The notes: generated by a model from the sequence alone, not told the origin. Counted from the stretch's first letter, positions 207 to 19,199 are shown. The stretch is DNA of 27,298 nt from an uncultured Armatimonadetes bacterium (GCA_937139515.1 CAKZQI010000030.1:1-27298); one strand, 5' to 3'. A program made the numbers and translations.

Positions 207-950
207 CTACCGAAAGCCCTGAACCAGCGCCTGCGCCAAAATGCCCCAACCGTTCGCCAGCGTGAACACCAACAACTTCGCCGGAAGCGACACAATCACC
301 GGGGGCAACATCATCATTCCCATCGAGAGCAGAATGCTCGCCACAATCAGGTCAATAATCAAAAACGGGATGAAGATGTAGAAGCCGATCAGAAAAGCGG
401 TCTTCAACTCGCTGAGAATGAAGGCGGGGATGAGCGTTGTGAGCGGCAGCTCGTCGGCAGTGCGTGGGGCGGGTTGCTTGCTGAGGCGGATGAACAGGTT
501 GAGGTCTTCGGTGTAGGTTTGGCGGAGCATAAAGGCGCGTACGGGCTTCTGAGCGCGCTGGGTCGCCTCTTGGAAAGTAATCTCTTGGCGCATATACGGC
601 TCCAGCGCTGTGCGGTTTATCTCGTCCAGCGTCGGCGCCATCACATAGAAGGTCAGGAACAGGCTCAGCCCTATCAGCACAGGGTTCGGCGGGATGTTGG
701 GCGTGCCTAACGCACTCTTGAGGAACGACAGCACAATCACAATCCGCGTGAACGCCGTCATCATCAACAGAATAGAGGGCGCCACCGAGAGCAAGGTCAA
801 CAGCGCCAGGATTTGAAGCGAGGTAGAGACCTCTTGTGGGTTGCGGGCGTTGCCGACCTCAACGCTCACGCGGGGCAGAGGCACGGTCTCCTGCGCCATC
901 AACGCAAGTGGAACCAGCCCCAAAACGATCACCCAAACCCAGCGGTTCAT
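207..950 (-). CDS. fliP: Flagellar biosynthesis protein FliP (type III export apparatus)
   Basis: 247 aa with a signal peptide. Conserved FliP block TAFTRIVIVLSFLKSALGT..PPNPVLIGLSLFLTFYVMAP and multi-TM architecture. Start overlaps the fliO stop (ATGA). Confidence 0.9.
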   Translation of the reverse strand: MNRWVWVIVLGLVPLALMAQETVPLPRVSVEVGNARNPQEVSTSLQILALLTLLSVAPSILLMMTAFTRIVIVLSFLKSALGTPNIPPNPVLIGLSLFLTFYVMAPTLDEINRTALEPYMRQEITFQEATQRAQKPVRAFMLRQTYTEDLNLFIRLSKQPAPRTADELPLTTLIPAFILSELKTAFLIGFYIFIPFLIIDLIVASILLSMGMMMLPPVIVSLPAKLLVFTLANGWGILAQALVQGFR

Positions 951-1513
951 ACGCCTCTCCCCAATAGCGTCTCCAGTTTCTGGCGGGTCTGTTGCAGGCG
1001 TGTTTGGACCTGCTGTTCCGTTTCGCGCTGGTAGTCCGAAGGGGGGCTATACGGCTGGGCGCGTCGGAGGGTTTGTTCAAAAGTGGCGTCGGCGGGAGCG
1101 GGGTTCGCTTCGGGCAGGGTGTCGGTCAGGTCAGCGATCAGTTGAAGCCCTTGCGGGGTACTGCCCACGAGGAGCAGTTTATCGCGCGCCTTGACCAGCA
1201 TCAGGCTCCCACCCGGCACCGCGCGGGTTTCAATCACCTTGACCTGTCCATCCACAGGGGAGCCGTTGCCCGTTTTGCTCGCCCAGCCGAGCAGTTTGGG
1301 CAAGCCGTAGCGTAGCCCGACGGCGACCACCCCCAGCGCCAGCGTCGCCTGAAGCCAGTTGAGCGAACCCCCTGAACTGGGCGGGGGCGCAATCCCGACG
1401 GGCGACCCTGTCCGCGTGCCGAACGCCCCCGGCTCCAGCGAAGCGTTCGGCTCCTGAGTCCACAGGCAGGCGACAAGCGCAATCCACAACCCTATTAGTG
1501 CGACGGTTCTCAT
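947..1513 (-). CDS. fliO: Flagellar biosynthesis protein FliO-like (single-TM, Pro/Gly-rich)
   Basis: 188 aa. One N-terminal TM helix then a Pro/Gly-rich region. It sits immediately between fliN/Y and fliP with 1-nt and 4-nt junctions, the canonical fliO position. The sequence itself is poorly conserved. Confidence 0.6.
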   Translation of the reverse strand: MRTVALIGLWIALVACLWTQEPNASLEPGAFGTRTGSPVGIAPPPSSGGSLNWLQATLALGVVAVGLRYGLPKLLGWASKTGNGSPVDGQVKVIETRAVPGGSLMLVKARDKLLLVGSTPQGLQLIADLTDTLPEANPAPADATFEQTLRRAQPYSPPSDYQRETEQQVQTRLQQTRQKLETLLGRGV

Positions 1514-1514
1514 C

Positions 1515-2459
1515 TTAGGCTCCTAACTTTTGCACGCGCTCGGCGGGCGAGAGGATTTCGGTGATACGCACAGCGAAGTTATCTTCCACCACGACCACCT
1601 CGCCCCGCGCAATCAGTTTGCCGTTGACCAGCACCTCAACGGGTTCGCCCGCCGTTTTATGAAGTTCAATGATAGACCCTGTGCCGATTTCCAGCAGTTC
1701 GCGCACTGCCAAGTTCACGCGCCCCAGCTCCACCGAGACCTCCAACGGGATGTCCAGTAGGAGGTCTAAGTTGCGTTCGGTGGGTTCCTCCGGCTCGGCG
1801 AACGGGTTGAACGCCATTGGCGTCGCTGTGGGGGCAGGCGTTTCGGGTTCGCTGAGGAGTGAGGCGAGCGGGTCATCTTGGGCAGGTTGCAAACCTAGCA
1901 AAGCGCGTGCCAGCCCCTCTGTGAGAAGCCAAGTGAGCGTGAACGGCGTGCGGTCTGGTATCTGAACCGTGAAGCGAGTGACGATTACCTCGTCCACAAT
2001 CAAGAAGTTGGGCGGGAAGGTCACCGGTTCGTGGTGCGCTTGGGGGTCAGCAGGGCTGAAAGCGGTATTGCGCAGGTTCCCGAACGCTATCGCCAAGCCT
2101 TGGCTAAGGTGTCCTGCGAACTCCTTGAACAGCTGGACGACGGTCTCGTCTATCGTTTCGCTCGGCGTGCCTGTGAGTGCCTCAATGAGCGCTTTTTCGG
2201 TCTCGGCGCGCTCGCTCATCTGGTCGCCCACGACAACCAGGCTCGGCTCATCAGACGCCTCACGGAAGCCAATCTGGGCGTACAACACCGGGTCGGCGGT
2301 GAGCAGGGTCAGGTCGGTGATGGGCACCGCTTGACTGGTGGGCGTCGGGATTTCCACCAGCACATTATTCTGCTCCGAGAGCTGCATCGCCACCGTCTGC
2401 CAGACGGTTTCTTGCTTGACCACGAACTGCGTTAGGACTTCGGGCTTCACCGTGCTCAC
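1515..2459 (-). CDS. fliN: Flagellar motor switch protein FliN/FliY (C-terminal SpoA/FliN domain with extended N-terminal domain)
   Basis: 314 aa. C-terminus LLLDIPLEVSVELGRVNLAVRELLEIGTGSIIELHKTAGEPVEVLVNGKLIARGEVVVVEDNFAVRITEI is the FliN surface-presentation domain. The long N-terminal region suggests a FliY-type protein. Confidence 0.85.
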   Translation of the reverse strand: MSTVKPEVLTQFVVKQETVWQTVAMQLSEQNNVLVEIPTPTSQAVPITDLTLLTADPVLYAQIGFREASDEPSLVVVGDQMSERAETEKALIEALTGTPSETIDETVVQLFKEFAGHLSQGLAIAFGNLRNTAFSPADPQAHHEPVTFPPNFLIVDEVIVTRFTVQIPDRTPFTLTWLLTEGLARALLGLQPAQDDPLASLLSEPETPAPTATPMAFNPFAEPEEPTERNLDLLLDIPLEVSVELGRVNLAVRELLEIGTGSIIELHKTAGEPVEVLVNGKLIARGEVVVVEDNFAVRITEILSPAERVQKLGA

Positions 2460-2462
2460 AGG

Positions 2463-3473
2463 CTAATCCTCCGTAACGATATCAGTAATGCTAACGACAT
2501 AGCGTCGGTTGCGGATGGCGGGTTTGCCACGATATTTCAGTTTATCTTCAATCAGCACATCAATCTTGCCGTTCGTTGGGGCATTGAGGACGAGCGTATC
2601 GCCCACTTTGAGTTCCAGTAGTTGTTTGAGGGTCATTCGGGTGCGCCCCAAGCGTGCGTGGCAGGTCATTCGGGTCTGCTTGAGGTGTTGGGTGAGCGCA
2701 TGGCGGATGTAGGGTGTGGTGCGCTTGCCTGAGGCAGAGACCCAGTTCTGCGAGCTGAGGCGTGGGGTAATCGGCTTGATGACCATGTGGGGCACACAGA
2801 GGCTCATCGCATCGCGTCGGTCGCCCACGCGTGCCTCCATCAGCGCAGTAATCACAATATCGCTGGGGGGCGCCACCTGAACGAACTGGGCGCTGGTCTC
2901 CAAACTCTCCACCTGCGGGTCCAGTTGCAAGATGCTCTCCCACGCACTACGAAACGCCATCAGCGCACGCTCTGCCAGCGCAATCACGAGGGGACGCTCT
3001 ATGTCGGTGAAGTTGTTGCGCTCAATCGGGCGCCCGACCCCTCCCAGCAGGCGGTCAATCAGCGTGAACACCAGCGAGTACTCCATCTCCAAAACCGACT
3101 CGCCCGTGAGGGGAGGCGAGGCGAAGATGATGAAGCACGACTCCTTGAGCGAGCGCATATAATCCTCGTAGGGGATTTGTTCCAGCGAGATAAGTTCAAT
3201 ATGCACGGGCACGCGTAGGTAGGTGGCGAAGTTGGTGGCGCACAGGCGGGCAAAGGTCTCAAATACCATTTGGAGGGTACGCAGTTGGTCACGCGAGAAC
3301 TTGTCGGGGCGTCGGAAGTCGTACACCTCGTAGGCGATCATGCGCTTCTGGTTGGCTCGCGTGCCGACCGGTGTCGCAGCGGGCGACCCAAAATCGGCTC
3401 CTGAGGAACCCTCGTCCGCACTCAGCGAGGCTAATAACGCCTCAATCTCGGCTTGCGAAAGAATCTCGCTCAC
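2463..3473 (-). CDS. fliM: Flagellar motor switch protein FliM
   Basis: 336 aa. N-terminal LSQAEIEALL CheY-P binding motif. FliM middle domain and a C-terminal FliN-like domain (GKIDVLIEDKLKYRGKPAI). Confidence 0.9.
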   Translation of the reverse strand: MSEILSQAEIEALLASLSADEGSSGADFGSPAATPVGTRANQKRMIAYEVYDFRRPDKFSRDQLRTLQMVFETFARLCATNFATYLRVPVHIELISLEQIPYEDYMRSLKESCFIIFASPPLTGESVLEMEYSLVFTLIDRLLGGVGRPIERNNFTDIERPLVIALAERALMAFRSAWESILQLDPQVESLETSAQFVQVAPPSDIVITALMEARVGDRRDAMSLCVPHMVIKPITPRLSSQNWVSASGKRTTPYIRHALTQHLKQTRMTCHARLGRTRMTLKQLLELKVGDTLVLNAPTNGKIDVLIEDKLKYRGKPAIRNRRYVVSITDIVTED

Positions 3474-3643: not shown

Positions 3644-3720
3644 AAGAAGCCTTGCGAGTGTGATTGAAATCACTGAAAAGGCGACCTTTTGTTAAGGTAG
3701 TTTTAGAGCGGAGGTGCACC

Positions 3721-4515
3721 ATGAACCTACCTGAACTCAGTTATGTGCAGTACTGGTTGGTGTACAATGCCTTTTCGTTTACCATAGCGGTGATGGCAGC
3801 GTCAGGGCTTTTCTTCCTGCTTGCCCGCAGCTATGTCGCCCCGAAGTACCATATTGCGCTCTATCTCTCCGCGTTAGTTGTGTTCATCGCTGGGTATCAC
3901 TACTTCCGCATCTTCCTGAGCTGGGATGAGGCGTACGATTTCAGCCAAGCCTCAGGAACCTATGTGCCCAGTGGTAAGCCGTTCAACGACTTCTATCGTT
4001 ATGCGGACTGGCTGATTACCGTACCGTTGCTTCTGACCGAGCTTATCTATGTGATGGCACTGCCTCGTGCGAAGGCGAATAGCCTCATCACCCGCTTGGT
4101 CATCGCGTCGGTGATTATGTTAGTGACCGGCTATCCTGGAGAGATAGCGCGCGACGATATGACGACCCGTCTCATCTGGTTCGTGCCCAGCACGCTGGCG
4201 TTCATCTACATCCTGTATGTGCTGGCGACGGAGCTGAACCGTGTGGTTGCTGAAGCGAAGTTCTCAGAAGCCGTCAACCGACGCATCTTCGCAGCGCGCA
4301 ACCTGACGATTATTACCTGGCTGTTCTATCCGATTGCCTATCTGGTGCCTGTGTTCGGCATTTCGGGTGCCACGGCTGAGGTAATCGTCCAGCTTGGCTA
4401 TAGCATCGCCGACCTGACCGCTAAGGCGCTGTTCGGCGTGATGCTCTACCTGATTGCTCGCGAGAAGACCCTGGCAGAAGAGCCAGAGTACGCTCGCACC
4501 GCCGCGACCCCGTAA
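3721..4515 (+). CDS. Microbial rhodopsin, xanthorhodopsin/Gloeobacter-rhodopsin-like proton pump (DTE motif)
   Basis: 7-TM protein. Helix C RYADWLITVPLLLTE gives a D/T/E proton-pump triad, and helix G has SIADLTAKALFG with the Schiff-base Lys. Strong similarity, recalled from memory, to Gloeobacter rhodopsin blocks (VYNAFSF, IAGYHYFRIF, TGYPGEI, YPIAYL). RBS GGAGGT sits 7 nt before the ATG at 3721. The upstream in-frame ATG at 3664 is probably not the start. Confidence 0.85.
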   Translation: MNLPELSYVQYWLVYNAFSFTIAVMAASGLFFLLARSYVAPKYHIALYLSALVVFIAGYHYFRIFLSWDEAYDFSQASGTYVPSGKPFNDFYRYADWLITVPLLLTELIYVMALPRAKANSLITRLVIASVIMLVTGYPGEIARDDMTTRLIWFVPSTLAFIYILYVLATELNRVVAEAKFSEAVNRRIFAARNLTIITWLFYPIAYLVPVFGISGATAEVIVQLGYSIADLTAKALFGVMLYLIAREKTLAEEPEYARTAATP

Positions 4516-10291: not shown

Positions 10292-10843
10292 TCACTCGAA
10301 TGCTTCACGCACGGGCATCTCAAACCCTGGCAACACGGGCGCACCCCTGAGCATGTCCTGCTCCGTGAGAACCTCCACTGTGCCGTCCGCGCGGTACACC
10401 GTAATCGTGCGCTGGTCAGGGTCTGCTACCCACACCACCTGCACGCCCGCCTCCAGCCACTCTGCGACCTTGTCCTGCAGGTAAGCGTCAGTGTCGCTGG
10501 GCGAGCGCACCTCCAGCACCAAATCGGGCACCACACGGCTGAACTGCTCGCTGGGCACTTGGGGCAGACGCTCCTTGCGGATGAACGCAAAGTCGGGGGC
10601 ACGCACGCTCTCACCACGCGATGTTCTCAACACGAAGCCGACCTCTGCGATGTACGACTCACCCAGATTTTGGGTCAGCGCATAGTACCCCGTTCGAACG
10701 CCGATGCGCCCTGCGACTCTCCCGTGTCTTTCCCCTGCTGGCATTCGCTCGTGAACCTCGCCTCGTATCAGTTCGGCAGGCTTACCCAGATACTCCTGCT
10801 CAAACGCTTCCACCGTCATCCGCTTCGGAGCCACTTTCGTCAT
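10292..10843 (-). CDS. Uma2-family endonuclease (DUF820, putative restriction endonuclease-like)
   Basis: Conserved Uma2 blocks: MTVEAFEQ...GEVHERMPAGERHGRVAG..., PDFAFIRKERL, VPDLVLEVRSPSD and AEWLEAGVQVVWVADPDQRTITVY. Start chosen at the internal MTKVAPKR (ATG 10841-10843). Confidence 0.75.
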   Translation of the reverse strand: MTKVAPKRMTVEAFEQEYLGKPAELIRGEVHERMPAGERHGRVAGRIGVRTGYYALTQNLGESYIAEVGFVLRTSRGESVRAPDFAFIRKERLPQVPSEQFSRVVPDLVLEVRSPSDTDAYLQDKVAEWLEAGVQVVWVADPDQRTITVYRADGTVEVLTEQDMLRGAPVLPGFEMPVREAFE

Positions 10844-10901
10844 TCGACCACCCGCCTTAGTGTACCTGCTTTGGGGATGTTCAATCCCCGAAGCACCCCG
10901 C

Positions 10902-11384
10902 CTACCCCTCCCCAAACGGGCTACGAAACTGCTGGACGAAGCGGTCGTGCTCTGCCTCGGTTTGGAGGGGCAGTTGATGGTGCGCTGTGGCAGGAGCCGT
11001 GCAGTTGTAGGCTAACACTTGAGCGTTGATTTGCTGAATGACCTGTACCATCCCCTGCCAAGTCTCGGTTTGCCACACCAAGAACCGCTCCTCGCCCATC
11101 TCACAGATACGAGGATACTCCCGCTCAGCGATGAGCCAGAGCCTGTGGTAGTGGCTACGAATGCGTTCAATCTCGCGTGCGCGCTCCATCCAGTCGGGTA
11201 GCACGCCTGCACTCTTGAGCAGGCGGATAGCAGGGCGCATTTCGGGAGGCACAAACCACTCTTCGTCCATAGGGAGGGGTTTTCCGCGTCCGGGCAGGTT
11301 GTCAAACTTGCCTTCTTGCATCGCCTCTTCAATCTTGCGCTCGGCGATGATTTCTATCACACGCTGGATGTCAGGCTGGTGCAT
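10902..11384 (-). CDS. DUF1992 (DnaJC28-like) domain protein
   Basis: N-terminal IEEAMQEGKFDNLPGRGKPL motif characteristic of the DUF1992/DnaJ-homolog-C28 family. A -10 TATAAA ends about 9 nt before the ATG, so it is probably leaderless. Confidence 0.6.
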   Translation of the reverse strand: MHQPDIQRVIEIIAERKIEEAMQEGKFDNLPGRGKPLPMDEEWFVPPEMRPAIRLLKSAGVLPDWMERAREIERIRSHYHRLWLIAEREYPRICEMGEERFLVWQTETWQGMVQVIQQINAQVLAYNCTAPATAHHQLPLQTEAEHDRFVQQFRSPFGEG

Positions 11385-11479: not shown

Positions 11480-11968
11480 TTGGAGAGCGCTATGGGGCAA
11501 ACTTTTATCACTTTCAGCGTCTTGTTCGGGTTCTGGTTCGCTCTATCGGGCAAATTGGACGCGCTGATGCTGGGGACAGGGTTGGTCGTGGCGATGCTCA
11601 CTGCGTGGGTCTCGGCGCCGTTGGTGTCGGGAACCGCAACCCCAGCCCGCCTCTGCCGAGGCACGCTGAAAGTCTTAGCGTACCTACCTTGGCTTGTCAA
11701 AGAGATTATCCTGTCAGGGTTGGATGTGATGAAGCGCGTGCTCCATCCCCGAATGCCCATCGCCCCCAAAATCGTTGAGATAGAAGTTGACTTAGAGACC
11801 GATGTGGCGAAGGTGCTGTTGGCAAACTCCATCACCCTCACGCCCGGCACCGTCACTGTGGAAGTGGAGGGCAACACGCTGATTGTGCATGCGCTTACCG
11901 AGAAGTCGCTGGAGAGCTTGCTCTCAGGCGAAATGCAAGCACGGGTGAAACGGATTGAGTTATGTTAG
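11480..11968 (+). CDS. mrpE: Mrp/Mnh-type cation:proton antiporter subunit E
   Basis: 162 aa. Two N-terminal TM helices and an MnhE-like C-terminal domain (ITLTPGTVTVEV...LIVHAL). It is the first gene of the cluster. Confidence 0.7.
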   Translation: MESAMGQTFITFSVLFGFWFALSGKLDALMLGTGLVVAMLTAWVSAPLVSGTATPARLCRGTLKVLAYLPWLVKEIILSGLDVMKRVLHPRMPIAPKIVEIEVDLETDVAKVLLANSITLTPGTVTVEVEGNTLIVHALTEKSLESLLSGEMQARVKRIELC

Positions 11969-12219
11969 TCTCGGCGCTCTTCGTTATCTTGCTGGCAACC
12001 GGCATTTCGCTCTACCGAGCCGTGATGGGACCGACCGCCCACGACCGTGTGCTCGCTATCAATGTGGTCAACACGAAGACCGTCGTGATTATTGTGCTGA
12101 TTGGCTTCATCAACCGTCGTCCCGAAGTGTTTATGGATATTGCGATTATCTACGCCGTGATTAACTTCGTATCAACGCTGGCATTCCTGCGCTATTTGGA
12201 ATCGAGGAGGGTGGACTGA
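11962..12219 (+). CDS. mrpF: Mrp antiporter subunit F
   Basis: 85 aa with 3 TM helices. MnhF/PhaF pattern ...LYRAVMGPTAHDRVLAINVV... Overlaps mrpE by 7 nt. Confidence 0.7.
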   Translation: MLVSALFVILLATGISLYRAVMGPTAHDRVLAINVVNTKTVVIIVLIGFINRRPEVFMDIAIIYAVINFVSTLAFLRYLESRRVD

Positions 12220-12527
12220 TGACGCTCACTGAACTGCTGGCGGGCGCGCTGATTTTTCTGGGCAGTTTCGTGTTTGTGGTGGCAGGGATTGGGATTGTGC
12301 GCTTCCCCGACTTCTACTCGCGGGTTCATCCTGCAGGCAATGGCGACACTTTGGGTCTTCCGCTCGTCTTGCTGGGGCTGGCAATCTACGAAGGCTTCAC
12401 CCACACCAGCCTGAAAATCGTGCTGGTGCTCATCTTCCTACTGTTGACAGGTCCGGTGGCGTCGCACGCGCTGGCACGCTCGGCATTTCTCACACGCCAG
12501 CAAGAGGAGGAAAGTAATGTGGATTGA
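12219..12527 (+). CDS. mrpG: Mrp antiporter subunit G
   Basis: 102 aa. MnhG pattern GIVRFPDFYSRVH..G..DTLG with 3 TM helices. Confidence 0.7.
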   Translation: MTLTELLAGALIFLGSFVFVVAGIGIVRFPDFYSRVHPAGNGDTLGLPLVLLGLAIYEGFTHTSLKIVLVLIFLLLTGPVASHALARSAFLTRQQEEESNVD

Positions 12528-13047
12528 CCTGACCTTGTTAGGGCTGTTGTTAGCGCTGGCGCTGGGCATCACTTTCAGTCGGGACACGCTCACAGGGTCG
12601 CTCCTACTGGGCGCCTACAGTCTGATTTTGGCGATGCTGTGGGTGGACTTGAACGCTGCGGATGTTGCGCTCACCGAGGCGGCAATCGGAGCAGGCGTCG
12701 CCACCCCACTGATGCTGTTGGCGATTAGCCGAAGCACCCGTGCCGAGCTGGGCGAAGTGCTTATGACCGTTCAGCGCTATCGGCGTTTTCCACCCTTCTT
12801 GGTGTTGGGTTTGGTGGCAGGGGCGTTGGTCTACGCCTCGTTAGACATGCCTCCGCTCGGCAACCCGAACAACCCTGCGAACCAGCATGTTGCGCCCTAC
12901 TATGTCCAAAACGCCTACCACGAGACCGGCTCAGAGAACATCGTTACGGCGATTCTCGTGTGCTATCGGGGATTTGACACGCTCGGCGAGGTGCTGGTGG
13001 TGATGACGGCAGGCGTGGCGATGATGCTCATCCTCAGGAGAAGTTAG
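12517..13047 (+). CDS. MrpA C-terminal-like subunit (DUF4040 + MnhB domain; MbhD/MbhE-like)
   Basis: N-terminal half has the DUF4040 motif NAADVALTEAAIGAGV. The C-terminal half has the MnhB-domain motif NIVTAILVCYRGFDTLGEV. Confidence 0.65.
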   Translation: MWIDLTLLGLLLALALGITFSRDTLTGSLLLGAYSLILAMLWVDLNAADVALTEAAIGAGVATPLMLLAISRSTRAELGEVLMTVQRYRRFPPFLVLGLVAGALVYASLDMPPLGNPNNPANQHVAPYYVQNAYHETGSENIVTAILVCYRGFDTLGEVLVVMTAGVAMMLILRRS

Positions 13048-13048
13048 C

Positions 13049-13471
13049 ATGCACCGAGACCTGATTATCCAAGTGACGGCGCGCTACACCATCCCGTTCA
13101 TCCTCGTGTTGGGGGCATACATCATGTCCCACGGCAAATACGGCGCAGGAGGCGGGTTCCAAGGCGGGGTGGTGATTGGCACCGCTTTCATCCTGAGCGT
13201 CATCTCATATGGCTACGACCAAGCACGGCGCGACCTGAGCCGACGGCTCAGCGACTGGATGAGCCTGCTGGGTGCGGCGATTTTTGCGGTTGTTGGATTG
13301 GCAACGCTGGTAGCAGGGGGAAGATTCTTGGAATACACTATACTCTATTCCGCCGAGCCTATCCTGACGAACCAGGTGGTCATTTTCGTTTTGGAGGTCG
13401 CTATCGGCATTACCGTAGGCGGAGTTATCGTCACCCTGTTCGCTGAGATGCTGAGGGGGGGTCAGAACTGA
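13049..13471 (+). CDS. mrpB: Mrp antiporter subunit B
   Basis: 140 aa. HGKYGAGGGFQGG signature of MrpB/MnhB, with 4 TM helices. Confidence 0.7.
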   Translation: MHRDLIIQVTARYTIPFILVLGAYIMSHGKYGAGGGFQGGVVIGTAFILSVISYGYDQARRDLSRRLSDWMSLLGAAIFAVVGLATLVAGGRFLEYTILYSAEPILTNQVVIFVLEVAIGITVGGVIVTLFAEMLRGGQN

Positions 13472-13503
13472 ACCCGCTTATCGAGAAGTACTACTGGGTC
13501 AGT

Positions 13504-13872
13504 ATGCTCGTCTTCATACTGGGACTGTACATGACCATCGTGAAAGGCAATCTCATCAAGAAGGTCATCGGTCTCAACTTAGCTCAGACGGGCGTCTACA
13601 CCTTCTTCATTCTCACCGCCAAAGTGAACGAGAGCACCGCCCCTGTGTACATCGGGGATGAGGTGCGCTATGCGAACCCTCTACCCCAGGTGCTAATCCT
13701 GACGGCGATTGTGGTGGGGATTAGCCTGACAGCGTTCGCGCTGGGGCTGGTCATTCGTATCTATCAAGCCTACGGCACAATTGAAGAGTCTGAACTGAGC
13801 CGACTGGTGCAGGCGAACAGAGAGGCGCAACCCTCTACCCTGACCCCCAGCTCGTCGGGAGGGGAGGGCTAA
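13504..13872 (+). CDS. mrpC: Mrp antiporter subunit C (NuoK-like)
   Basis: 122 aa. NuoK/MnhC-like 3-TM protein (LGLYMTIVKGNLIKKVIGLNLAQTGVYTFFIL). The C-terminal tail is Pro/Ser-rich. Confidence 0.65.
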   Translation: MLVFILGLYMTIVKGNLIKKVIGLNLAQTGVYTFFILTAKVNESTAPVYIGDEVRYANPLPQVLILTAIVVGISLTAFALGLVIRIYQAYGTIEESELSRLVQANREAQPSTLTPSSSGGEG

Positions 13873-13876
13873 GCGG

Positions 13877-15526
13877 ATGCTGGCGGAACACCTGCCGATT
13901 TTGCATGTGCTTATCCCTCTGGTGGGGGCGATTGTTCTGCTGACGGGGGGTGTCCTGCGCCCCCTGAGAGAAGTCGCTTGGGGACTGACCATGCTGGTGG
14001 TGCTCGCCTCGGCAGTGAGCGCCTTCCAACTCATCCCTCGCGTGCTGTCGGAAGGTCGCATCAGCTATGCGTTGGGCAACTGGAAGCCCCCGTATGGGAT
14101 TGAGTATGCGGTTGACTCGCTCAGCCTGCTCCTGATTTTGCTCATCACCAGCCTTACTGTGATTATCACGCTCTACACGCGTCATAGCATTCAGCGCGAC
14201 ATCACGCCCAACCAACAACCCTATTTCTATTCTGCCTACCTCTTGTTCGTGGGTGGGCTTTTGGGGATGGTCACCACCGCCGATATTTTCAACCTCTATG
14301 TGTTTTTGGAGATTGCGTCGCTGTCGGGTTATGCGCTGATTGCCATCGGGCGTCGGCGTGAGGCACTTTTGGCAAGCTACAACTACCTAATGATTGGCAC
14401 GATTGCCTCTACACTGTTCCTGCTAGGAATAGGGTACCTTTACATGATTACGGGCACGCTGAACATGCAGGATTTGCAAGCGCGCCTGGAAGAACTTTAC
14501 GGCTCCCGCACCCTGCTGGTGGGGATGGCATTTATCACGCTTGGGCTGTCGGTCAAAATGGCGCTGTTCCCCCTGCACACATGGCTCCCCAACGCTTACA
14601 CCTACGCGCCCGACGCCATCACGGCGCTGATGGCATCGCTCACCACGAAGGTAGGGGTCTACACCGCCTTCCGTGTCTTTTTCGGGGTGCTGAAGCCTTC
14701 GTTCCTCTCCCAGGTCGTGCCGTTGGAGGAAATCTTTATGCTTCTGGGGGCGTTGGCGATTCTGGGTGGCTCGCTGATGGCTATCTTCCAGAACAATCTC
14801 AAGCGGATGCTGGCGTACTCCTCCGTGGCGCAGATTGGTTATATAGTGTTGGGGCTGGCGATGTTAAATGTTTCGGGGATGATGGGTGGGCTGATTCATA
14901 TCGTCAATCACGCCGTCGTGAAGGCGGGGCTGTTCCTTGCCGTAGGCAACATCATTTACCGTACAGGTTTGGAGGAGGTTGACGACTTGAACCAGATTGC
15001 TCAACAGATGCCCAAGACGATGTTGGCGTTCACTGTGTGTGCCTTAGCGCTGATAGGTGTCCCTCTCACGGCGGGTTTCGTGACGAAGTGGTACCTCGTG
15101 TTGGGCAGTATTGAGGCAGGGCGTTGGTTCCTGGTGCCCGTAATCGTTGTTGGTGCGTTGCTGGCGGCAGTCTATCTCTGGCGAATTATTGAGCGGGCGT
15201 ATTTTTGGTCGCGGAAGGGAGGAGCTCTCACCCCCCCAGCCCCCCTCTCCGCAAGCAGAGAGGGGGGGGAACTCGGTTCCCCCTCTCCGTTTACGGAGAG
15301 GGGGCAAGGGGGTGAGGTGAACCCAGACCCCCCCTCCCCAACCCTCCTCCCGAATTCTGAGCAAGAGAGCCAATCGCCTCCCGCGCCTAAAACCTCCGAA
15401 GTCCCCCTTAGCATGCTCATCCCGACGCTCGTGATGGCGGTTCTGAGCCTTGCGTTAGGTATCTTTGCAGTTTTGCCGTTGAACCTCGCCGAACGGATTG
15501 CCAAGTCGTTGTTAGGAGCCGAGTAG
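13877..15526 (+). CDS. mrpD: Mrp antiporter subunit D (NuoM/N family) carrying an in-frame palindromic-repeat insertion near the C-terminus
   Basis: HTWLPNAYTYAPDAITALMASLTTKVGVY proton-pump motif and a multi-TM structure. Residues approx. 450-495 (LTPPAPLSASREGGELGSPSPFTERGQGGEVNPDPPSPTLLP) are encoded by the 125-bp repeat. Confidence 0.8.
   Translation: MLAEHLPILHVLIPLVGAIVLLTGGVLRPLREVAWGLTMLVVLASAVSAFQLIPRVLSEGRISYALGNWKPPYGIEYAVDSLSLLLILLITSLTVIITLYTRHSIQRDITPNQQPYFYSAYLLFVGGLLGMVTTADIFNLYVFLEIASLSGYALIAIGRRREALLASYNYLMIGTIASTLFLLGIGYLYMITGTLNMQDLQARLEELYGSRTLLVGMAFITLGLSVKMALFPLHTWLPNAYTYAPDAITALMASLTTKVGVYTAFRVFFGVLKPSFLSQVVPLEEIFMLLGALAILGGSLMAIFQNNLKRMLAYSSVAQIGYIVLGLAMLNVSGMMGGLIHIVNHAVVKAGLFLAVGNIIYRTGLEEVDDLNQIAQQMPKTMLAFTVCALALIGVPLTAGFVTKWYLVLGSIEAGRWFLVPVIVVGALLAAVYLWRIIERAYFWSRKGGALTPPAPLSASREGGELGSPSPFTERGQGGEVNPDPPSPTLLPNSEQESQSPPAPKTSEVPLSMLIPTLVMAVLSLALGIFAVLPLNLAERIAKSLLGAE
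15226..15350. repeat. ~125-bp GC-rich repeat, copy A, containing two perfect hairpins, inside the mrpD CDS
   Basis: About 90% identical to 16971-17095. Hairpin 1 is CCCCCCTCTC-cgcaagca-GAGAGGGGGG (15240-15267). Hairpin 2 is CCCCCTCTCCG-ttta-CGGAGAGGGGG (15279-15304). Confidence 0.85.
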
Positions 15527-15530
15527 CACG

Positions 15531-17324
15531 ATGAACCCTGTCATAAACGCCTCTGAACCGATATGGGCTGTGGGCAGTGCTTTTCTCACTGCTCTCCTGA
15601 TAGCGCTTACGGGCAGGTGGCAGAATCTGCGCGACCTGTGGAGCCCGCTGGGCGCGCTGGCTCAGTTTGGGATTGTAGCGTCGCTCGTGCCCGCTGTGCT
15701 GTCAGGCGAGACCCGCACCTTCACCCTCACCACGCCCATGCCTGGGGTCGCCCTCTACTTCAAAGTGGACGAGTTGGGGCTATTCTTTGCCCTGATGGCG
15801 TCGTTCCTGTGGTTCATCGCCTCGCTCTATTCGGTAGGCTATATGCGCGCCCTCAAGGAGCACGCCCAGACCCGGTTTTTCGCCTTCTACGCCATTTCGT
15901 TGGGGTCTGCGGTGGGGATTGCGTTTGCAGGCAACCTGTTCACCTTGTTTGTGTTCTACGAGATGCTCACTTTGGCGACCTACCCGCTGGTCGTCCACAA
16001 ACAAGATGCCGAAGCACGGGCGAAGGCGCGCGTCTACATGACCTATCTGCTGGGAACCTCTATCGGCTTCCAGTTCACGGCGATCTTGGTTATTTACGGG
16101 ATTTCGGGCGAGCTGAACTTCACCAAAGGCGGGTTCCTGCAGGGTCAGGCACCCGATTGGCTCTTGCTCTCGGCGTTTCTGCTTTATATCGCTGGGATTG
16201 GCAAGTCGGCGATTATGCCTTTTCACAAGTGGCTTCCCTCAGCGATGGTAGCGCCTGCGCCTGTGAGTGCGCTCCTACACGCCGTGGCGGTCGTCAAGGC
16301 GGGTGTGTTCACCGTGCTGAGGGTGGTGGTCTATGTGTTCGGGGTGGACTGCTTGGTGAGCCTGCAGGTAGCGCAGATTTTGCCTTATGTTGCGGGCACG
16401 ACGATTGTGGTAGCCTCGCTGATTGCCCTGTTTCAGGACGACCTGAAGTTGCGACTTGCCTACTCCACGATTAGCCAGCTCTCGTATGTTGTGTTGGGGG
16501 CAGGGCTGTTGTCACCGTTGGGAGCGATGGGCGCGACGCTCCATATGGTGTTCCACGGCTTTGCGAAGATTACACTCTTCTTCACAGCAGGGCACATCTA
16601 CTGCGCCACCAAGAAGACCAAAATCAGCCAGATGCGCGGGATAGGCAAACAGATGCCCTTCACGATGATTGGGTTTACGATAGGTGCGTTGGGGATGATA
16701 GGGCTTCCTCCCGCCTCCAGTTTGTGGAGCAAGTGGTACATCGGTTTGGGCGCCCTTGAGACCCAACACTACTTCGCTCTAGGTGTGCTGGTGGTCAGCA
16801 CGATTTTGAATGCCCTGTACTTTTTGCCGATTGTCTACTCCGCTTTCTTTGAGGGTGGGGGGGGAGTAGAAGCCCTCACCCTCCCCAGCCCTCCCTCTCC
16901 CAACACTGTGGGAGAGGGAGAGAGCCAACTGCTCCCCTCTCCCGACGCTGCGGGAGAGGGGTCGGTAAACCTCACCCCCCCAGCCCCCCTCTCCGCAAGC
17001 AGAGAGGGGGGTGAAGCCCTATATTCCCCCTCTCCGTTTACGGAGAGGGGGCAAGGGGGTGAGGTGAACCCAGAAACCCCCTCCCCAACCCTACCCCTAA
17101 GCGCAGGGGGAGAGAGCCAACTGCTCCCCTCTTCCGAAGCTTCGGGAGAGGGGCAGGGGGTTAGGGCAACCGAGAAGCCTCCAACAAGTGAGGTCATAGA
17201 GTTCTCTACACCCTACCTAACCCTAATGACGCTGGCAATTTGCGCCACGGCGCTGGGCGTGCTGGTGCTGTTCGTTTACCCCCATCCCTTTCTGGAGTTG
17301 GCACGGAGGGTCGCTGGGCTATGA
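15531..17324 (+). CDS. NuoL/MrpA N-terminal-like antiporter subunit with multiple in-frame hairpin-repeat insertions
   Basis: AMVAPAPVSALLHAVAVVKAGVF resembles the NuoL/MrpA motif PTPVSALIHAATMV. It has about 14 TM helices. Residues approx. 445-545 are a low-complexity P/G/S/E linker encoded by five hairpin repeats. RBS AGGAG precedes the ATG at 15531. Confidence 0.75.
   Translation: MNPVINASEPIWAVGSAFLTALLIALTGRWQNLRDLWSPLGALAQFGIVASLVPAVLSGETRTFTLTTPMPGVALYFKVDELGLFFALMASFLWFIASLYSVGYMRALKEHAQTRFFAFYAISLGSAVGIAFAGNLFTLFVFYEMLTLATYPLVVHKQDAEARAKARVYMTYLLGTSIGFQFTAILVIYGISGELNFTKGGFLQGQAPDWLLLSAFLLYIAGIGKSAIMPFHKWLPSAMVAPAPVSALLHAVAVVKAGVFTVLRVVVYVFGVDCLVSLQVAQILPYVAGTTIVVASLIALFQDDLKLRLAYSTISQLSYVVLGAGLLSPLGAMGATLHMVFHGFAKITLFFTAGHIYCATKKTKISQMRGIGKQMPFTMIGFTIGALGMIGLPPASSLWSKWYIGLGALETQHYFALGVLVVSTILNALYFLPIVYSAFFEGGGGVEALTLPSPPSPNTVGEGESQLLPSPDAAGEGSVNLTPPAPLSASREGGEALYSPSPFTERGQGGEVNPETPSPTLPLSAGGESQLLPSSEASGEGQGVRATEKPPTSEVIEFSTPYLTLMTLAICATALGVLVLFVYPHPFLELARRVAGL
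16891..17153. repeat. Cluster of five palindromic hairpin repeats, including copy B of the 125-bp unit (16971-17095) flanked by a ~47-bp direct repeat (16915-16961 and 17107-17153)
   Basis: Hairpins: 16891-16920 (12-bp stem CTCCCTCTCCCA/TGGGAGAGGGAG), 16934-16961 (CCCCTCTCCCG/CGGGAGAGGGG), 16984-17011, 17026-17051 and 17126-17153 (one stem mismatch). All are in frame with the host CDS and contain no stop codon. Confidence 0.85.
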
Positions 17325-17509
17325 AAGGTCTGCGCTGGATTTTGTTGGGCGTTTGGCTCGTCGGTCTGCTGGCGGAGAGCCTGCTCACGAAACAGAAACT
17401 CCCTCTCCCGTACGCCCTGTTGGGGCTGATTGGGACTTTCGGTTTCGTGCTGGCTTACGAACTATTCGGCAAGCGTCTGTTAGCCCGCAAGGAGGACTAC
17501 TATGCCTGA
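17321..17509 (+). CDS. Small (62 aa) membrane protein translationally coupled between two antiporter subunit genes
   Basis: MKGLRWILLGVWLVGLLAES...LLGLIGTFGFVLAYELFG gives two predicted TM helices. Its ATG overlaps the upstream stop (ATGA) and its stop overlaps the downstream ATG by 8 nt. Confidence 0.5.
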   Translation: MKGLRWILLGVWLVGLLAESLLTKQKLPLPYALLGLIGTFGFVLAYELFGKRLLARKEDYYA

Positions 17510-19199
17510 GGCGCTCCACCCTGGTCTCCTGCTGATGGTGAGCGCACTCCTCATTCCCCTACTCCCAAATAGGCTTAGAGCGGGCTACCTCGTGTTGGTT
17601 CCGATTGCCGTGCTGGCGCTGCTGATGAACCTACCCGAAGGTCAGTGGCTTCGTGTACCGCTGTTGGATTACACCCTGACCCTGCTTCGTGTAGACCGCT
17701 TGAGTATGGGGTTCGCGCTGGCGTTCGTGATAGCGTTGGGCGCAGGGATGGGGTACGGGCTTCCCCAGCGCGATTGGCGCGAACATCTCCTCGCCTATCT
17801 CTACGCAGGAAGCACTTTAGGGGTCACCTTCGCAGGCGACTTGCTCACCCTGTTCGTGTTCTGGGAGATGATGGCGCTCTTTGCGACCTTGCTTATCTGG
17901 AGCGCACGACGAACCGATTCGTACCGAGCAGGGCTACGGTACCTAATCTACCACCTCATTGGGGGGCTGTTCCTGCTCTTCGGTATTCTGGGGCACTGGG
18001 CAGGGGGCGGTGGGCTGGAATTCAATGCGCTGGCGTTGGATAGCGTGTGGGCGTGGTGCATTTTGATAGCGTTCGTCATCAACGCGGGCGTTCCGCCGTT
18101 CCACACCTGGCTTCCCGACGCCTACCCGACCGCCTCAGTATCGGGAATTGTCTACCTGGGCGCGTTCACCACGAAGGCATCAGTCTATGTGTTGGCACGG
18201 GGTTTTGCGGGCGCTGAGGTCTTGATGTGGGCAGGGGCAGTGATGGCGCTTTACGGGGTGGTCTACGCCACTTTCCAAAACGATATGCGTCGCCTGCTCT
18301 CGTACCACATCGTGAGCCAGGTGGGATACATGGTGTGTGCGGTCGGTGTGGGGGGCGTTCAAGGGGTCAACGGCGCAACGGCACACGCATTCGCACATAT
18401 CATGTACAAGTCGCTCTTGTTGATGGGGGCAGGCGCTGTGCTATTTGCCACGGGCAAAGAGAAGCTCAGCGACCTCACAGGTGGCGAGCTATATCGTCGC
18501 TTGCCTCTGTCGCTTATGCTGTATCTCATCGGGGCGCTCTCTATAGCGGGTGTGCCCCTGTTCAACGGCTTCGTGAGCAAGGCGATTATCACCGAAGGAT
18601 TGGAGACGCTCGGTCAGAAGGCGGTCTATCTTATGCTCACGATTGCGTCGGTGGGCACCTTCTTGTCGGTTGCGCTCAAGTTGGCGTATTTCGCTTGGTT
18701 CGGCAAGCCCGGCCCAGAGCGGGTTGCGCAGTACCAAACGGTACAAGAGGTTCCACGAAGCATGCATCTTGGGATGGCGGTATTGGCAGTGGTATGCGTG
18801 GGAATGGGAGTAGCGCCCAGCCTGTTCAATTGGATTCTGCCGTACCCCGAAGCGCTCGCCGTGTACTCCACAGACAAGGTGCTGACCACTATGAACCTGT
18901 TCGTCGGCACGAGCGTGGGCTTTGCATGGCTGGTGGCGCGCCTACAACCAAAACCGAAAGAGATTTTGGATCTGGATTGGTTCTATCGGCGCGGGCTGTA
19001 CCCGTTCGTGGCGTGGAGCGTGCCGGCGGTCAGGCGTGCTTCTCGGCGTGTGGGGCGTCTCACTTTGGCGCGCGCCTTAGCACGCTCGCGCGACTGGCTG
19101 GAAGCGCGCTCGGCAGGCAGTTTCTCCGTGAGCGACGCAATTGTCTGGATTGCGCTGTTCCTGCTGGTCTATATCGGGGCGTATTTGCTTGTGAGGTGA
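17502..19199 (+). CDS. Second MrpD-like (NuoM/N family) antiporter subunit
   Basis: FHTWLPDAYPTASVSGIVYLGAFTTKASVY motif, multi-TM, and a conserved N-terminal NuoN-like region (LTLFVFWEMMAL). Confidence 0.8.
   Translation: MPEALHPGLLLMVSALLIPLLPNRLRAGYLVLVPIAVLALLMNLPEGQWLRVPLLDYTLTLLRVDRLSMGFALAFVIALGAGMGYGLPQRDWREHLLAYLYAGSTLGVTFAGDLLTLFVFWEMMALFATLLIWSARRTDSYRAGLRYLIYHLIGGLFLLFGILGHWAGGGGLEFNALALDSVWAWCILIAFVINAGVPPFHTWLPDAYPTASVSGIVYLGAFTTKASVYVLARGFAGAEVLMWAGAVMALYGVVYATFQNDMRRLLSYHIVSQVGYMVCAVGVGGVQGVNGATAHAFAHIMYKSLLLMGAGAVLFATGKEKLSDLTGGELYRRLPLSLMLYLIGALSIAGVPLFNGFVSKAIITEGLETLGQKAVYLMLTIASVGTFLSVALKLAYFAWFGKPGPERVAQYQTVQEVPRSMHLGMAVLAVVCVGMGVAPSLFNWILPYPEALAVYSTDKVLTTMNLFVGTSVGFAWLVARLQPKPKEILDLDWFYRRGLYPFVAWSVPAVRRASRRVGRLTLARALARSRDWLEARSAGSFSVSDAIVWIALFLLVYIGAYLLVR

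Follow-up and report, generated by a model that had tools for sequence, protein, structure and literature searches.

A ten-gene group 3 Mrp-type operon with three antiporter-like subunits from an uncultured Armatimonadetes bacterium

Group 3 Mrp systems are defined by an irregular gene order (PMC5703873) or by the absence of mrpA together with the presence of one or several mrpD genes (PMC8415708), the group labels being attributed to Swartz 2005, Ito 2017 and Haja 2021. The stand-alone group 3 Mrp of Pyrococcus furiosus is encoded by PF1147-53 in the order mrpEFGBB'CD, and its deletion phenotypes indicate that it is coupled to Na+ and contributes to the homeostasis of pH (Haja et al. 2021, PMC8415708). 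In Ca. Nitrospira alkalitolerans, the mrpD gene of a group 3 Mrp is followed by two further NuoM/NuoL-like genes, both of which were read as additional mrpA/D-like subunits (Daebeler et al., 2020, PMC7784846). The mrpCD1D2EFGAB cluster of Aphanothece halophytica is reported to confer Na+/H+ antiport in E. coli, and the cluster of Microbacterium TS-1 is arranged as mrpFGBCDDAE (PMC5703873). In what has been named green complex I, two MrpD-like subunits replace NuoL (Yu et al. 2022, PMC9040806). Here, we describe a cluster of ten genes at positions 11480-19199 of a 27,298-nucleotide (nt) stretch of DNA from an uncultured Armatimonadetes bacterium (GCA_937139515.1 CAKZQI010000030.1:1-27298), the whole of which is referred to as the window. 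The cluster probably specifies a stand-alone ten-subunit cation/proton antiporter of the Mrp type (CPA3, group 3).

The ten consecutive open reading frames (ORFs) lie on the + strand and overlap or are separated by gaps of no more than 32 nt, which fits a single operon; a promoter and terminator scan over the operon remained at chance level and gave no boundaries. With protein lengths in amino acids (aa) and the results of Pfam and NCBIfam profile searches, the genes are as follows.

11480..11968, + strand: MrpE/MbhA-like, 162 aa from TTG 11480; Pfam MNHE E=1.4e-35
11962..12219, + strand: MrpF/MbhB-like, 85 aa; Pfam MrpF_PhaF 7e-19
12219..12527, + strand: MrpG/MbhC-like, 102 aa; Pfam PhaG_MnhG_YufB 1e-27; TIGR01300 83.7 bits, cutoff 63.1
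12517..13047, + strand: MbhD+MbhE fusion, 176 aa; Pfam MbhD 2e-15, MbhE 9e-14; NCBIfam NF009159 184 bits, cutoff 141
13049..13471, + strand: MrpB/MbhF-like, 140 aa; Pfam MnhB 3e-26
13504..13872, + strand: MrpC/MbhG/NuoK-like, 122 aa; Pfam Oxidored_q2 1e-21
13877..15526, + strand: D1, MrpD/MbhH/MbsH class, 549 aa; Proton_antipo_M 2e-66
15531..17324, + strand: D2, extra antiporter-like subunit, 597 aa; Proton_antipo_M 8e-54 plus Proton_antipo_N
17321..17509, + strand: x, small subunit, 62 aa; without a Pfam or NCBIfam match
17502..19199, + strand: D3, MrpA-N/NuoL/MbsH' class, 565 aa; Proton_antipo_M 2e-42; NF009310 614 bits, cutoff 564

The MrpE-like protein is likely to begin at ATG 11492 (158 aa) rather than at TTG 11480, because its orthologue in the relative L001 has 158 aa. 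No MrpA of ~800 aa is encoded; instead, the cluster contains three Proton_antipo_M genes whose products measure 549-597 aa. Each of the seven subunits MrpA-G nevertheless has a homologue in the one cluster, MrpA being represented by two genes, the MbhD+MbhE fusion and D3, and the operon encodes all seven Mrp functions. The window thus combines the lack of a full-length mrpA with several mrpD-type genes and an irregular order, EFG-A(C)-B-C-D-D-x-D, as in group 3.

An earlier reading, made by a model from the sequence alone (the sequence-only reading), had placed the ten + strand ORFs at these same coordinates and in this same order. It had described an Mrp-type cluster E-F-G-[DUF4040+MnhB fusion]-B-C-D that departs from the classical ABCDEFG order, and the Pfam and NCBIfam assignments agree with this anatomy, the fusion being MbhD+MbhE: the profile searches that it had proposed as a check assign the subunits to Mrp/Mbh families, with scores above the NF009159 and NF009310 cutoffs. 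Its statement that the first seven genes mirror MbhA-H is borne out by the published Mrp-Mbh subunit homologies (PMC7419157), and the order is also that of P. furiosus mrpEFGBB'CD. It had further noted that no hydrogenase or oxidoreductase genes follow. Indeed, rsmG (GidB) and a GT4 glycosyltransferase gene lie downstream of D3, and none of the redox genes sought occurs in the 27-kb contig. This search covered the whole 27,298-nt window: a Pfam domain scan found no NuoB/C/D/H/I-type or hydrogenase gene anywhere in it, and tblastn with NuoA/B/C/D/EF/G/H/J/K of the locus L002 gave no match in the window; matches to these proteins were present in 30 complex I-type loci, described below.

The cluster and the P. 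furiosus Mrp are both stand-alone systems without a redox module. The order of the first seven genes is identical, and the P. furiosus MrpB is the same MbhD+MbhE fusion, a match based on the description in PMC8415708 and on the MBH/MBS chains. The P. furiosus system has a single antiporter-like subunit and no MrpA-N equivalent, whereas the window adds D2, x and D3 and so has three antiporter-like subunits together with a lateral-helix clamp. With canonical group 1/2 Mrp (Bacillus, Anoxybacillus 6Z16, Dietzia 7D3U) the window shares all seven subunit families, including subunits of the MrpD and MrpA-N types, as well as the lateral helix, a Lys/Glu axis along the centre and, at the periplasmic exit, the Asp/Glu pair. 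It differs from them in the order (ABCDEFG in canonical Mrp, EFG-A(C-terminal domain)-B-C-D... here), in the splitting of MrpA into two genes, in the extra antiporter-like subunit and x, and in an MrpC without the His pair, an MrpF without Asp35 and a D3 without the lysine of transmembrane helix (TM) 7. The Pyrococcus MBS/MBX and MBH complexes (6U8Y, 6CFW) have the gene order MbhA-H / MbxA-H' as in the window, and MBS provides the best matches to D1 (MbsH), D3 (MbsH'), F (MbsB) and C (MbsG); MbsH' and D3 both carry TM15, a lateral helix and TM16. The window, however, is without the MbhJ-N/MbsJ-N module, has D2 and x inserted between the H-like and H'-like genes, and shows Gln at the position of MbsG Glu37. 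The Nitrospira, Aphanothece and Microbacterium clusters share with it the irregular order, the lack of a full-length mrpA and several MrpD/NuoL/NuoM-like genes, but their gene orders differ from that of the window. Dedicated NCBI models exist for this gene layout; the title of NF009310 is 'Na(+)/H(+) antiporter subunit D', and NF009159 is an equivalog model. Collectively, the cluster is an ordinary member of a widespread, little-studied, already noted and routinely annotated variant of group 3 Mrp. To our knowledge, the literature searched contains no purification, assay or solved structure of the ten-gene type.

The three antiporter-like subunits are not equivalent. D1 scores 224 bits against MbsH, 202 against MbhH and 200/189 against MrpD among the solved structures. 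When aligned with the A. flavithermus residues that Steiner and Sazanov consider (PMC7419157), it keeps all of its key residues, namely Glu145, Lys227, Lys258, His345/Lys349 and Lys404. D2 is intermediate among solved relatives, with MbhH first, followed by NuoL, NdhF and ND5. Its key residues are Glu144, Lys225, His250 plus Lys256 in TM8 (MrpA-type) and Lys401, and it has a Proton_antipo_N match and no lateral helix; its orthologue in green complex I is the first of the 'MrpD-like' genes, the L002 copy being 50% identical. The set of Glu in TM5 and Lys in TM7, TM8 and TM12 is complete in D1 and D2, so that the key residues of the proton path are intact in both; they are mostly intact in D3, which has Glu122, Lys225 and Lys360 and carries Asn194 at the TM7 position.

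For D3, the best solved relative is MbsH' (123 bits, 1e-34), followed by MrpA. Its AlphaFold2 model (pLDDT 83) shows a 14-helix core followed by three further helices, TM15 (457-477), an amphipathic helix (493-532, as 493-519/522-532) and TM16 (543-564), the confidence being low past residue 517. A Foldseek search with this model gave MrpA, MrpD and NuoL chains as top matches, and the alignments to MrpA, NuoL and NdhF chains exceed 600 columns. Because of the succession of TM15, lateral helix and TM16, the Foldseek matches and the best match to MbsH', D3 is equivalent to NuoL, to MbsH' and to the N-terminal domain of MrpA, and D2 and x are the additions to the Mrp set. These assignments alter part of the sequence-only reading. 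Its 'NuoL-like' label for D2 holds for the core marks (Proton_antipo_N, His and Lys in TM8) and fails for the lateral helix, which belongs to D3. D3 itself, taken there for a 'second D', instead has the TM15-lateral helix-TM16 arrangement and an MrpA/NuoL fold, and the 62-aa ORF, whose position was given correctly, is a conserved subunit and not filler. The C-terminal tail of D3 has a median of 102 aa in the family, and it measures 122-124 aa in 4/5 D3 genes at loci with a fourth pump gene. According to a published rule, the length of the lateral helix follows the number of pump subunits (PMC9040806, PMC7684303), and a tail length that tracks the number of antiporter-like genes fits a lateral-helix clamp.

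The small subunit x is also present in public gene calls. Its ATG overlaps the stop codon of D2 (ATGA) and its last 8 nt overlap the start of D3, an arrangement from which x is predicted to be translationally coupled to both D2 and D3. It contains two hydrophobic stretches and a C-terminal E-D-Y-Y(-D) motif, and in 67/78 loci, both Mrp-type and complex I-type, D2 and D3 are likewise separated by an ORF that ends in this motif. A profile search with x reached at least 1377 protein clusters, including those of Sinorhizobium and Rhizobium; none of these relatives has a Pfam domain, and all are named 'hypothetical'. In this lineage x is shortened to 62 aa and is without the His-x-His-Phe-Trp-Trp loop of most relatives. 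The conservation marks x as a predicted two-helix subunit that is real, conserved and unannotated. We know of no name given to it in the literature searched. Possible origins of x as a diverged MrpC/NuoK, as another small Mrp subunit or as a detached C-terminal helix of D1, D2 or D3 were tried and rejected, the hhalign probabilities being 0.1-12%.

At the cation end, the MbhD+MbhE fusion protein aligns to TM17-21 of MrpA as well as to MbhD, MbhE and MbsE, and on this alignment it is the equivalent of the MrpA C-terminal domain and of the 'MrpB' of P. furiosus Mrp. In most relatives its MbhD and MbhE halves are separate genes, exactly as in MBH. Glu54, Asp154 and Glu158 are conserved in it, and the motifs DVAxTEA and YRGxDTLGE are kept in relatives. 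Asp154/Glu158 correspond to D792/E796 of A. flavithermus MrpA, the pair at the periplasmic exit, and in place of MrpA E706 the fusion has the MbhD-type Glu54, which lies four residues before that position. The best solved relative of MrpF is MbsB (3e-14), and those of MrpC are MbsG (7e-18) and MbhG; Thr67 of MrpC is conserved. In general, the small subunits and D1 score higher against MBS/MBH chains than against Bacillus-type Mrp chains.

The distribution of the layout was examined through D3, for which relatives at E<=1e-10 number over 7,500. When a single genome was taken for each species, the scan gave 80 loci with a D3 relative, which were classed by tblastn with the window proteins and the Nuo proteins of one locus. 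In 32 of the 80, the Mrp-type gene set E-F-G-MbhD-MbhE-B-C-D1-D2-x-D3 is present, nearly always in that order; 30 are complex I operons in which D2-x-D3 sits where NuoL is normally found, and the contigs of the other 18 are too short for classing. The sequence-only reading was right to count three antiporter-like subunits, but the stoichiometry that it called unusual recurs in these 32 loci, in the NCBI models and in the Nitrospira cluster (PMC7784846). Hosts of the Mrp-type set include Chloroflexota, Desulfobacterota, Acidobacteriota, Bacteroidota, Ignavibacteriales, Nitrospirota, Binatia, Gammaproteobacteria, Bacillota and archaeal metagenome-assembled genomes (MAGs). The closest relatives of the window, at 81-86% identity, have the same ten genes in wholly different flanks (for example L001). 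One close relative at 86% identity is named Fimbriimonadales, and on the sole basis of this relative the host may be a Fimbriimonadales-like bacterium. The flanks of the 32 Mrp-type loci are unrelated to one another, and the recurrent neighbours resemble, on inspection by eye, stress, regulatory and CaCA-type cation-exchanger genes. Among the recurrent neighbours of 34 Mrp-type clusters, no redox partner was found, only lineage-specific synteny in Dehalococcoidia.

The complex I-type loci correspond to the green complex I known from rhizobia, which shares with the window an MrpD-like gene, a small hypothetical gene and an MrpD-like gene bearing the lateral helix (PMC9040806). Its copies are 44-50% identical to D2 and D3, with an E-D-Y-Y small protein between them. 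There, the module replaces NuoL in an NADH:quinone oxidoreductase operon (J-K-D2-x-D3-M-N-A-B-C-D-E-F-G-H), whereas in the window it is attached to the Mrp cation module. On a plasmid of Sinorhizobium medicae, the counterparts of D2-x-D3 lie between nuoK and nuoM and are annotated, in order, as 'monovalent cation/H+ antiporter subunit D family protein', 'hypothetical protein' and 'Na(+)/H(+) antiporter subunit D'. The complex I copies of D3 fall within the Mrp-type copies in a neighbour-joining tree that is rough and carries no support values.

Several relatives depart from the common layout. In a Nitrospirota MAG (L071, 8237-15675), the order is rearranged to D2-x-D3-MbhD/E-B-C-D1-E-F-G, which equals the canonical A-B-C-D-E-F-G with 'A' replaced by four genes; this arrangement is probably similar to that described for Ca. 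Nitrospira alkalitolerans. L006, L007, L009 and L023 (Desulfobacteraceae, Desulfatiglandales and an unclassified MAG) carry, behind D3, another D3-like gene as their fourth antiporter-like gene, and the C-terminal tail of their first D3 is ~20 aa above the family median. In a Bacteroidota MAG (L051, JASEHD010000003.1, 118-13209), a complete Mrp-type cluster stands between nuoK-nuoL-nuoM and a nuoN-like gene, a placement that reflects either insertion of the cluster into a nuo operon or a genuine association, and in L055 (Ignavibacteriales) nuoL-like and nuoM genes lie upstream of the Mrp-type cluster. Relatives of D3 are also carried by haloarchaeal plasmids (Haloterrigena, Natronorubrum, Haloarcula and others) and by rhizobial symbiosis plasmids.

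A mechanism for the ten-subunit antiporter can be proposed by analogy. From homology to solved Mrp, MBS and complex I, the subunits E, F, G, B and C and the MbhD/E fusion would form the cation-translocating end. D1 would adjoin this end, with D2 next and D3 farthest. This row is suggested by the affiliation of D1 with MrpD/MbsH, by the use of D2-x-D3 in place of the distal NuoL in complex I, and by the presence of the lateral helix on D3. The lateral helix of D3 and TM16 would run back along the row and clamp the subunits together. The proton-motive force would drive protons inward through the three antiporter-like subunits, and the resulting charge changes could travel along the central Lys/Glu axis to a site between D1 and MrpC/MbhD and there expel a cation, for which Na+ is the likeliest candidate. 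A third pump subunit would lift the number of H+ per cation above the 2:1 proposed for canonical Mrp, since it would add one proton per cycle if the electrostatic relay proposed for Mrp is valid. With more H+ per cation, electrogenicity would increase, and the exchange might run against steeper gradients or when delta-pH is low.

Several points weigh against this reading. Three positions of the Na+ path proposed for Bacillus-type Mrp are not conserved, either here or across the family. In the alignment with 6z16_F, MrpF has Asn34 at the conserved Asp of Bacillus-type Mrp, MBH and MBS (D35 in A. flavithermus), and G, S or N occupies this position in 32/34 family members. Gln28, Thr29 and Tyr32 of MrpC align with Ser36, His37 and His40 of A. 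flavithermus MrpC; position 28 is Q in 33/35 members, position 29 is T in 28/35, and position 32 is Y, I or F. Moreover, the acidic MbsG Glu37 also aligns with MrpC Gln28, so that Gln replaces the acid. The TM7 lysine, invariant in MrpA/D and NuoL/M/N and kept here in D1, D2, NuoM and NuoN, is replaced by Asn in D3 of 85/86 family members (L001-L084), in Mrp-type and complex I-type contexts alike. The D3 tail of this lineage (the window and L001) is the shortest in the set, at 74 aa, and its lateral helix may fail to reach D1. We infer the D1-D2-D3 order and the placement of x by analogy, and the ion transported by the ten-gene type by homology. Finally, the search for a redox partner covered one contig of the genome, and an unlinked partner is conceivable.

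The replaced residues could also be explained by a stand-alone Mrp-type exchanger that is non-classical in its ion (K+ or Ca2+), route or stoichiometry, which we regard as unlikely, although more probable than the two alternatives below. Both the replacement of the A. flavithermus residues for Na+ binding and passage across the family and the nearly constant Asn in TM7 of D3 would fit it. In addition, Mrp specificity does vary, as the Mrp of Thermomicrobium roseum catalyses Ca2+/H+ antiport (PMC5703873), and the Dietzia structure is without the MrpA-MrpF cavity, which suggests that Na+ paths differ among Mrp complexes (PMC8415708). A gene resembling a CaCA-type exchanger by eye follows D3 in 5 related loci. 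On the other hand, the periplasmic-exit residues, the MbhD-type Glu and MrpC Thr67 are conserved, and both group 3 systems with experimental data, the P. furiosus and Aphanothece halophytica Mrp, are reported to use Na+. Specificity is, moreover, not a property that can be assigned from such alignments.

It is less probable still that the cluster is the membrane arm of a redox-driven pump, MBX/MBS-like or complex I-like, onto which a peripheral module encoded elsewhere docks. The greater closeness of the subunits to the arm chains of P. furiosus MBS/MBH than to Bacillus-type Mrp could be taken in this sense, as could the use of D2-x-D3 by real complex I operons, in 30 of the 80 loci and in Sinorhizobium, and the position of the whole cluster between nuoM and a nuoN-like gene in the one Bacteroidota MAG. 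However, the contig is without the NuoH/MbhM anchor, the MbhI/NuoA loop subunit and any NuoB/C/D/I homologue, and none of these is adjacent in the 32 Mrp-type loci, apart from L051 and L055 with their nuo membrane genes; a recurring redox neighbour is not seen. The docking position of MbhM/MbsM is taken in Mrp by the MrpA-N-type subunit, here D3 (PMC7684303). Furthermore, each complex I-type locus found has its own NuoJ/K, whereas the window has MbhD/E, MrpC and the E/F/G antiporter set.

The genes D1 and D2 also contain GC-rich hairpin repeats, at the following positions.

15227..15401, + strand: GC-rich hairpin repeat insertion, in frame, in the D1 loop just before the last transmembrane helix
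16875..17153, + strand: hairpin repeat expansion, in frame, in the D2 TM14-TM15 loop, ~95 residues more than in distant relatives

The repeats follow the pattern CCCCTCTCC-N-GGAGAGGGG and variants of it. Exact matches number 3, with 0 expected, and all of those in the window lie in the genes D1 and D2. The repeats were found as repeat families labelled D1/D2 and as inverted repeats I1-I7, and they encode stretches rich in Pro, Ser, Gly and Glu. The D1 repeat region differs from that of L001, the remainder of the protein being 78% identical. The length of D2, 597 aa here, falls to 548 aa in L087 and to 527 aa in L001, both relatives with 81-86% identity in D3, and to ~490 aa in the distant L013 and L002, so that this loop is hypervariable. 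That these insertions, which add ~60 and ~95 residues inside two essential genes, have disabled a decaying cluster is very improbable, as all ten reading frames are intact with each insertion in frame, both insertions fall within the loop that connects TM14 to the last helix, outside the conserved core, all key residues are retained, and the relatives at 81-86% identity keep the same ten genes with varying loop lengths.

Beyond the preferred assignment as a stand-alone Mrp-type antiporter, we tentatively consider a wider proposal for the family, to be taken as possible rather than expected. The family, of ten or eleven genes, could form a functionally distinct class of Mrp, with three pump subunits in a row, or four in some lineages, an x with an invariant E-x-Y-Y C-terminus, a D3 without the TM7 lysine and a cation site without the Bacillus His/Asp. 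In the same proposal, D2-x-D3 would be a distal pump module able to move between complexes, with its origin in stand-alone Mrp and a later transfer to complex I, where it would have taken over the position of NuoL, and the H+ per cation ratio or the ion would differ from that of canonical Mrp.

The rest of the window encodes flagellar FliM/N/O/P proteins, a microbial rhodopsin, an S9 peptidase, an SPFH protein, RsmG, a glycosyltransferase and cell-wall recycling enzymes. Three of the features upstream of the operon are located as follows.

207-3473, - strand: flagellar export/switch genes fliP, fliO, fliN-like and fliM, at the left end of the contig
3664-4515, + strand: microbial rhodopsin, Pfam Bac_rhodopsin 4e-38, 7 kb upstream of the Mrp operon
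10292-10915, - strand: Uma2-family putative endonuclease, between YqiJ-like and DnaJ-C28-like genes

Helix C of the rhodopsin reads RYADWLITVPLLLTE, with a D-T-E motif of the proton-pump type, and a Lys is present in helix G. The protein is a candidate light-driven proton pump, which would supply the force that an Mrp antiporter consumes.

For the window itself, the result amounts to a correct annotation, that of an ordinary group 3 Mrp operon in an Armatimonadota-like MAG, and not to a new machine. The wider significance lies in the family. The small subunit x is absent from domain databases, including the copy in the rhizobial complex I variant that is up-regulated in nodules. Furthermore, lateral-helix tail length and pump subunit number appear to vary together within the family, which offers a route to how pump subunit number sets the H+/Na+ stoichiometry in Mrp and complex I.

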